A program made the position numbers and the translations under genes. 64,000 nt of DNA, from the NCBI RefSeq assembly GCF_003334305.1, contig NZ_QOWS01000022.1. One strand, given 5' to 3'. Under the pieces are notes generated by a model. It worked only from the letters and a program-made list of their open reading frames with translations, was not told where the DNA came from and did no database searches. The first letter of the stretch is position 1, and each line of letters opens with the position of its first letter. Of this stretch, positions 46,772 through 47,644 are shown piece by piece. Origin of the DNA: Escherichia coli (lineage in GTDB: Bacteria; Pseudomonadota; Gammaproteobacteria; Enterobacterales; Enterobacteriaceae).

Positions 46772-47644
46772 TTAGCGCCCCTTCTTTTTACGCCCCGGAG
46801 AGGTAAAACGCTTACCGTTGGACGCCGGGCGACCGCCTTTTTCCGCCGTTTTTTCCATCTTAACGACTGGACGTTTGATGCCCGCTGTTTTCGGTTTGGC
46901 CTTCACTTTAGGTTTTGCCTCGGAAGAGGAATTTTCGATGAGCTTAAAGAGGTCGATTAACTCATCATCAGTTAAATCGCGCCACTCACCCAGCGGAATG
47001 CCGCTTAAGCTGACGTTCATAATGCGCGTACGTTCCAGCTTTTTCACTTCATAGCCGAAATGCTCGCACATGCGCCGGATCTGACGGTTCAGCCCCTGCA
47101 CCAGGGTAATGCGGAAGACAAACGGCGCTTCTTTTTTGACTTTGCACTTTTTCGTCACCGTCCCGAGGATCGGCACCCCCGCCCCCATACCACGAATAAA
47201 TTCATCGGTAATCGGTTTATCGACCGTCACCAGATACTCTTTCTCATGATCGTTACCCGCACGGAGGATCTTATTCACCAGATCGCCGTGATTGGTGAGG
47301 AAAATCAGCCCCTGGGAGTCTTTATCCAGGCGGCCAATCGGGAACACGCGTTTGCTGTGGTTAACGAAATCGACAATGTTATCGCGCTCGCCATCTTCGG
47401 TGGTGCTGACAATACCGACGGGCTTGTTCAGGGCGATAAGTACCAAATCTTCGGCTTCCCGAGGCTCAATCAACTGACCGTTTACTTTCACAATGTCGCC
47501 GGGTTTCACCTGATCGCCAATGGTGGCTCGCTTGCCATTAAGGAACACATTGCCTTGCTCGATATAGCGATCCGCTTCGCGGCGTGAGCAAATTCCGCTT
47601 TCGCTGATGTATTTATTTAAACGGACTGATGAGTCGGGCAGCAT
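46772..47644 (-). CDS. rluF: 23S rRNA pseudouridine synthase F
   Basis: 290 aa; S4 domain N-terminus, RsuA/RluF catalytic motif [10 protein letters not shown], Lys-rich C-terminal tail. Confidence 0.93.

Follow-up and report, generated by a model that had tools for sequence, protein, structure and literature searches.

Genes at the locus

The site studied lies on the E. coli chromosome: a 1.5-kb query across it gave matches of 100% identity in many complete genomes of E. coli, with yjbD, rluF and pepE as the annotated genes and rluF itself at 100% DNA identity. In the window, by which we mean the whole 64-kb stretch of DNA analysed, the following features were delimited.

46772..47644, minus strand: rluF CDS, 290 codons plus a TAA stop at 46772-46774 (ORF list, DNA identity, NCBIfam, PDB 3DH3)
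47489..47626, minus strand: S4 RNA-binding domain, residues 7-52 of RluF (Pfam PF01479, E = 1.1e-13; AlphaFold2 (AF2) pLDDT >90)
47060..47440, minus strand: pseudouridine synthase catalytic domain, residues 69-195 of RluF (Pfam PF00849, PseudoU_synth_2, E = 7.8e-21)
46499..46771, plus strand: yjbD (DUF3811, 90 aa), convergent with rluF; its TGA stop (46769-46771) adjoins the rluF stop
46764..46789, plus strand: palindrome GGCGCTGATTAGCGCC followed by CCTTCTTTTT, covering both stops (pattern scan)
44842-45969, minus strand, and further left (also locus L082, 1-2570): strain-variable block left of yjbD (annotation)

Against NCBIfam model NF007784, the RluF equivalog (cutoff 318), the 290-codon ORF scored 606.1 bits with all 290 positions covered; the models of the paralogues gave 106 bits (RluB) and 95 bits (RsuA). 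On these sequence grounds we assign the ORF at 46772-47644 (minus strand) to RluF, the 23S rRNA pseudouridine-2604 synthase. The K-12 protein, 98% identical, acts on U2604 of 23S rRNA and on U35 of tRNA-Tyr (PMC11194073). Comparison with the PDB 3DH3 chain gave 285 identical residues out of 290; of the five differences from the K-12 sequence, two lie where the C-terminal tail begins (A243 and V247 here, V243 and A247 in K-12). The motif with the catalytic Asp, GRLD, occupies residues 104-107 and is conserved in alignments. The folded core extends to about residue 240 (46925), with the last helix placed by AF2 at residues 226-236.

Between yjbD and the strain-variable block to its left lies a spacer of 530 nt (45970-46498). 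In the block, a slipin-family (SPFH) protein, a nucleotidyltransferase-domain protein and a zeta-toxin-family protein are annotated. The spacer includes a T-arm-like sequence, GGGAATCGAACCC, which prompted a tRNA scan of 45500-47000; no tRNA was found there. The sole Rfam match in 44500-48500, RNaseP_bact_a over the region coding for the tail, reached 17.3 bits where the gathering score is 100 and was discarded as a chance match.

Composition and disorder of the C-terminal tail

The initial annotation described the C-terminal end of RluF as Lys-rich and highly basic. This was borne out: the peptide quoted there is exact and corresponds to residues 244-290 (46775-46915), a 47-mer with 13 Lys, 5 Arg, 2 Glu and no Asp, a net charge of +16 and a pI of 11.9. 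The span given with it, 46772-46900, is however ∼15 nt short on the upstream side, as it takes in only the last 42 residues and the stop codon. Counted from the end of the folded core (residues 241-290), the tail has 13 Lys, 5 Arg, 3 Glu and no Asp, a net charge of +15; the net charge of residues 1-240 is 0.

Among 16,278 windows of 47 aa taken from the 51 ORFs of at least 150 aa in the 64-kb window, the RluF tail alone had a net charge of at least +16; the runner-up ORF peaked at +10. As the tail is the sole 47-aa window at this level, its charge bias is far beyond chance. The tail was also said to be of low complexity. For the 47-mer as a whole we agree, with a Shannon entropy of 3.25 bits versus 3.7-4.0 bits elsewhere in RluF; the last 13 residues, however, form a conserved motif, invariant in ten Enterobacterales genomes, to which such a description does not apply.

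The suggestion that the tail is appended to the catalytic domain proved right: a Pfam scan gave no domain match on the last 95 residues, so that the tail lies outside both domains, and it is coil in the AF2 model and disordered in the crystal. The AF2 run, made with an 83-sequence alignment, predicted the S4 and catalytic fold with confidence (pLDDT mostly >90) and residues 241-290 as pure coil, the pLDDT of successive blocks being 77, 66, 56, 53 and 54. In the crystal of RluF with an RNA stem-loop, the C-terminal ∼40 residues were disordered and made no contact with the stem-loop (PMC3919597). Prediction and crystallography thus agree, and residues 241-290 of RluF are an intrinsically disordered, polycationic C-terminal extension.

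The tail as such has been a known feature in the structural literature since the first RluF structures. Sunita and co-workers (2006) reportedly defined, via limited proteolysis, a C-terminal RluF segment on a flexible linker to the catalytic domain; the structures PDB 2GML and 3DH3 are said to come from that work and from Alian and co-workers (2009). Both structures are discussed in Czudnochowski et al. 2014 (PMC3919597); as the disordered C-terminal segment was already described there, the tail is not new. In these structures and in the window one is dealing with the same part of the protein; those papers apparently describe neither the terminal motif nor the phyletic spread. A search of the searchable literature found no experiment on the function or truncation of the RluF tail.

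Subdivision of the tail and selection within Enterobacterales

A codon alignment of ten Enterobacterales genomes, Yersinia included, was used for comparing pN among regions of RluF. As synonymous sites were saturated (pS 0.68-0.78), dN/dS was unusable and was left aside; pN alone is reported.

Residues 1-240: RluF core; pN 0.063
46859..46924, minus strand: proximal box, Lys/Pro-rich, residues 241-262; pN 0.22, moderately conserved in Enterobacterales, coil in AF2
46814..46858, minus strand: variable middle, residues 263-277; pN 0.47, with indels among Enterobacterales and drift of both sequence and length
46775..46813, minus strand: terminal motif, residues 278-290 (from alignments); pN 0.066, pS 0.72

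Judged by pN, the terminal motif is constrained to the same degree as the catalytic core (0.066 versus 0.063). It was kept in all ten genomes, and in a set of 22 enterobacterial proteins K278, R279, F280 and the whole of P283-R290 were invariant. Seven of its 13 residues are basic; it also holds an aromatic residue and a Pro-Gly. The variable middle, on the other hand, resembles a spacer that drifts freely. We therefore add a refinement to the description of the tail, which consists of a variable basic linker and a short conserved end motif.

The sequence GGRPA (residues 271-275) in the E. coli protein was considered as an AT-hook or extended AT-hook. The candidate was rejected, as close relatives do not keep the G-R-P core (Enterobacter has GRGKPG, Klebsiella sp. 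has KTPAEL) and Pfam gave no match on the tail. Length variants of E. coli RluF (272-289 aa) were considered as a polymorphism of the tail and ruled out as such: every deletion fell in the S4 or catalytic part, none in the tail.

Longer variants, of 361-405 aa, were seen in some enterobacterial assemblies (seven proteins; also locus L083, 2340-2628). In these, the stop is lost because 1 nt is missing from an A/G-rich run in the final codons (…GRKRK(G)VVNA…); translation then continues for ∼85-115 aa across yjbD in antisense, in a frame that varies. We take these variants to be probable homopolymer sequencing errors or recent frameshifts and not a functional extension. One NCBI protein of 503 aa, 98% identical to RluF, scored 1076 bits (about twice the normal score) and has a normal N-terminus and a normal C-terminus with GRKKKGR; this points to an internal duplication or to an artefact of assembly.

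Spread of the tail among homologues

In a full HMMER scan, 1.84 billion cluster representatives were searched and the best 150 homologues were taken; the end of the core was located in each, and the 113 with a complete core were analysed for a tail. The frequency of basic tails of at least 20 aa was as follows.

At least 55% identity to E. coli RluF: 38 homologues with complete core, basic tail in 34
50-55% identity: 27 homologues with complete core, basic tail in 15
40-50% identity: 48 homologues with complete core, basic tail in 12

The initial annotation had proposed such an alignment, naming absence of the tail from most orthologues as the adverse outcome; for close orthologues, at 34 of 38, the opposite was found. 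In total, 61 of the 113 homologues (from the best 150) had basic tails, 20-285 aa long. The median length is 110 aa, so that the 50-aa tail of E. coli is a short one. The pooled composition was 17% K, 10% G, 10% R, 10% S, 9% A and 8% P, with hydrophobic residues scarce; of all tails of at least 20 aa, 61 out of 70 carried a net positive charge, and did so across phyla. Composition is thus kept in the 61 basic tails while sequence and length change, as also in the middle of the enterobacterial tail (pN 0.47). Ten proteins were checked against the family models (the query and nine homologues, six with a tail and three without); the RluF model scored far above those of RluB and RsuA. As the RluF model scores far better, the checked homologues belong to the RluF clade and are not paralogues.

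A scan with one genome per species gave 80 named loci. A basic tail was present in every gammaproteobacterium sampled: Escherichia, Citrobacter, Enterobacter, Klebsiella, Yersinia, Aeromonas and Shewanella, as well as Psychrobacter, Marinobacter, Vreelandella, Nitrincola, Idiomarinaceae, Vibrio and Thiomicrorhabdus. It was also present in Bacteriovorax and in many Bacteroidota (Pedobacter, Hymenobacter, Chitinophaga, Paludibacter, Bacteroides, Parabacteroides). In the Bacillota sampled (Clostridium, Hathewaya, Paenibacillus, Peribacillus, Halalkalibacter, Lachnospiraceae) the tail was absent or 0-8 aa long, and in many Flavobacteriales it was short or absent. As the RluF-like enzymes of Bacillota and many Flavobacteriales do without it, the tail is not essential to the family; to judge from its distribution, it is a recurrent accessory, neither universal nor a defining part.

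Several lineages have conserved islands of their own in tails that otherwise evolve fast. In five Vibrio tails, KATDAKLFDSR lies close to the start and GTLSLKK forms the very C-terminus; Hymenobacter tails share GWWGPRP and an ending GGRSKGPAxR, and three of them have a mid-tail NPSGTGWWGPRP(D/E)KP. A subset of Bacteroidota-like tails ends in S[FY]Kx[FY]RKKGR, a sequence similar to the enterobacterial one. The pattern [FY]..[FYP].[RK] was found at the C-terminus of 12 of the 61 tails versus 1.2% of internal windows; this is a post hoc pattern, counted on the same data from which it was taken, and calls for caution. Enrichment of aromatic residues at the C-terminus over all 61 tails was not significant (28 observed versus 24 expected).

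Some tailed homologues carry internal repeats. In two RluF-clade proteins the core runs on into NUDIX/MutT-like sequence (…GGKIEAGE…REIQEELG…), and another has a 180-aa acidic repetitive tail with a net charge of -26.

Possible function of the tail

The initial annotation read the tail as an RNA- or ribosome-binding element, and we find this reading plausible. In the form that we consider somewhat more probable than otherwise, the tail would be a non-specific electrostatic tether to RNA or to the pre-50S particle, with a conserved terminal anchor. A polycationic tail would raise the on-rate and the dwell time of RluF on large, partly folded RNA. The targets would be nascent 23S rRNA or pre-50S particles and, as RluF is dual-specific, possibly tRNA-Tyr. 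[quoted passage not shown]

Support for this reading comes from a net charge of +15 to +16 on an otherwise neutral protein, an outlier in the window. The disorder of the tail, the maintenance of a basic composition, the purifying selection on the terminal motif, the lineage-specific islands in other tails and the presence of a similar tail in RluB are consistent with it as well, as is the analogy with Lys-rich regions of eukaryotic snoRNP enzymes. A limit is set by the 22-nt stem-loop substrate, with which the tail makes no contact (PMC3919597). As RluB truncated to residues 1-251 still reacts with its stem-loop (PMC3919597), basic tails of this kind are dispensable for the chemistry. The existence of RluF-clade enzymes without a tail is a further limit. 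Furthermore, when RluF was expressed again in a strain from which 10 modification enzymes are missing, neither growth nor 50S assembly was restored (PMC11194073), so that any role in assembly should be subtle. What the positive charge suggests is affinity for polyanions of any kind, not for RNA in particular.

One could speculate further that residues 278-290 are a specific targeting element that docks RluF on an early pre-50S site or on tRNA-Tyr. This would explain how one enzyme serves two unrelated substrates, and the Vibrio GTLSLKK and Bacteroidota SFKxFRKKGR endings would then be equivalent anchors; we hold this to be doubtful.

Some of the same evidence could be taken to mean that the terminal motif, possibly with the whole tail, is not an RNA tether at all but a docking or regulatory signal: a short linear motif binding a ribosomal protein, a helicase or another assembly factor, or else a signal for polyphosphate or nucleoid association or for protease-controlled turnover of RluF. 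Position-specific conservation of residues 278-290, with their aromatic residue and Pro-Gly, next to a drifting linker would fit this well, since a conserved end on a free linker is what short linear motifs in disordered regions typically look like. The hydrophobic or aromatic islands that other lineages have of their own, as well as a stem-loop left untouched by the tail (PMC3919597), point the same way. However, no partner of the RluF tail is known and none was identified in this analysis; a motif with 7 basic residues of 13 fits nucleic-acid contact equally well; and the motifs vary by lineage though ribosomal components are conserved. We consider such a signal unlikely.

The spread among homologues could also be explained without any function, the tail being a neutral low-complexity extension that grows and shrinks by slippage. 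Its length, ranging from 0 to 285 aa, the internal repeats in some homologues and the tail-less enzymes of Bacillota and many Flavobacteriales would all be expected in this case; in addition, the tail of RluB has been called poorly conserved (PMC3919597), and no rluF phenotype is traceable to the tail (PMC11194073). A neutral extension should not, however, keep its positive charge across phyla (61 of 70 tails of at least 20 aa), nor should residues 278-290 be constrained like the core in spite of saturated synonymous sites; moreover, the paralogue RluB has a basic tail, too. Neutrality of the tail thus looks improbable to us.

The yjbD junction

At the DNA level, the terminal codons of rluF could have been shaped by a terminator of yjbD, with the Lys codons as its U-tract and the Gly-Arg-stop codons as a hairpin arm. 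The stops of the two genes adjoin, and GGCGCTGATTAGCGCC with CCTTCTTTTT stands exactly at the junction. The palindrome, GGCGC-TGATTA-GCGCC, is perfect, with the two stops (TGA|TTA) touching inside it; the T-run of CCTTCTTTTT on the plus strand is the antisense of the KKK codons of RluF. Together, palindrome and T-run look like a yjbD terminator. Moreover, yjbD is convergent with rluF in Escherichia, Citrobacter, Enterobacter and Superficieibacter, either abutting it or overlapping it by 4 nt; in Citrobacter and Superficieibacter the two CDS share 4 nt (cgTTAAcg). As the stops abut or overlap, there is no intergenic room for separate terminators of yjbD and rluF; no terminator-like site for rluF itself was found.

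Nevertheless, the hairpin (46764-46789), with a folding energy of -14 kcal/mol, does not outdo shuffled sequence (z = -0.46), and the terminator-pattern scan found 1 site versus 2.4 expected in shuffles. At most 6 of the 50 tail residues could be accounted for in this way. The same GRKKKGR is present in Yersinia artesiana, in which yjbD is not adjacent, as well as in Klebsiella sp. BIGb0407, whose 47-nt spacer bears a hairpin of its own; among genera, codons change synonymously while the residues stay. Since GRKKKGR is kept without yjbD as a neighbour and with varying codons, the constraint on it acts on the protein. A yjbD terminator was rejected as the cause of the conservation of the motif, and we give very little credence to its having shaped the terminal codons of rluF.

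Comparison with known systems

For genome annotation the result has little bearing, rluF being a textbook housekeeping gene. Its value is modest and is that of a refinement: a variable basic linker and a motif that is selected as strongly as the catalytic core.

One comparison is with RluB, a paralogue with the same S4 and RsuA-type core as RluF; it is the 23S Psi2605 synthase, and U2605 adjoins U2604. The C-terminal 40 residues of RluB, predicted to be disordered, were removed for crystallisation, and reaction with the stem-loop was retained (PMC3919597). A structure of RluB on rRNA is available at 5 Å (PDB 9CL9). The RluB tail is basic like that of RluF but Arg-rich (…EKDRRRMKANQIRRAVKRHSQVSGGRRSGGRNNNG), and it lacks the ending seen at residues 278-290 of RluF; beyond residue ∼240 the likeness of the two proteins is compositional only. 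Unlike RluF, the chains of RsuA and RluE stop at the core.

Basic unstructured tails rich in Lys and Arg, present at the C-terminus of the bacterial DEAD-box helicases RhlE, SrmB and DeaD and as extensions in ribosomal proteins, add non-specific affinity for RNA to the specific core of ribosome biogenesis factors. These families are unrelated to RluF.

The nearest analogy in function is found in eukaryotes, where the Lys-rich disordered KKE/D regions of snoRNP proteins, by their electrostatics, concentrate enzymes near nascent rRNA and promote its modification (PMC11528048). Like the RluF tail, the KKE/D domains of Cbf5/dyskerin, Nop56 and Nop58 are disordered Lys-rich C-terminal extensions on machinery that modifies rRNA, a pseudouridine synthase included. 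They differ in that they alternate Lys with blocks of Glu/Asp, self-associate and work in nucleolar condensates, whereas the RluF tail is bacterial and has 3 acidic residues out of 50; when the KKE/D definition was applied to residues 241-290 (13 K, 5 R, 3 E, 0 D), this segment did not fall within it. We regard the likeness as an analogy of mechanism without homology. If truncation of the tail were found to alter the modification of full-length 23S rRNA or of tRNA-Tyr, the tail would be a bacterial counterpart to the Lys-rich targeting domains of snoRNPs.
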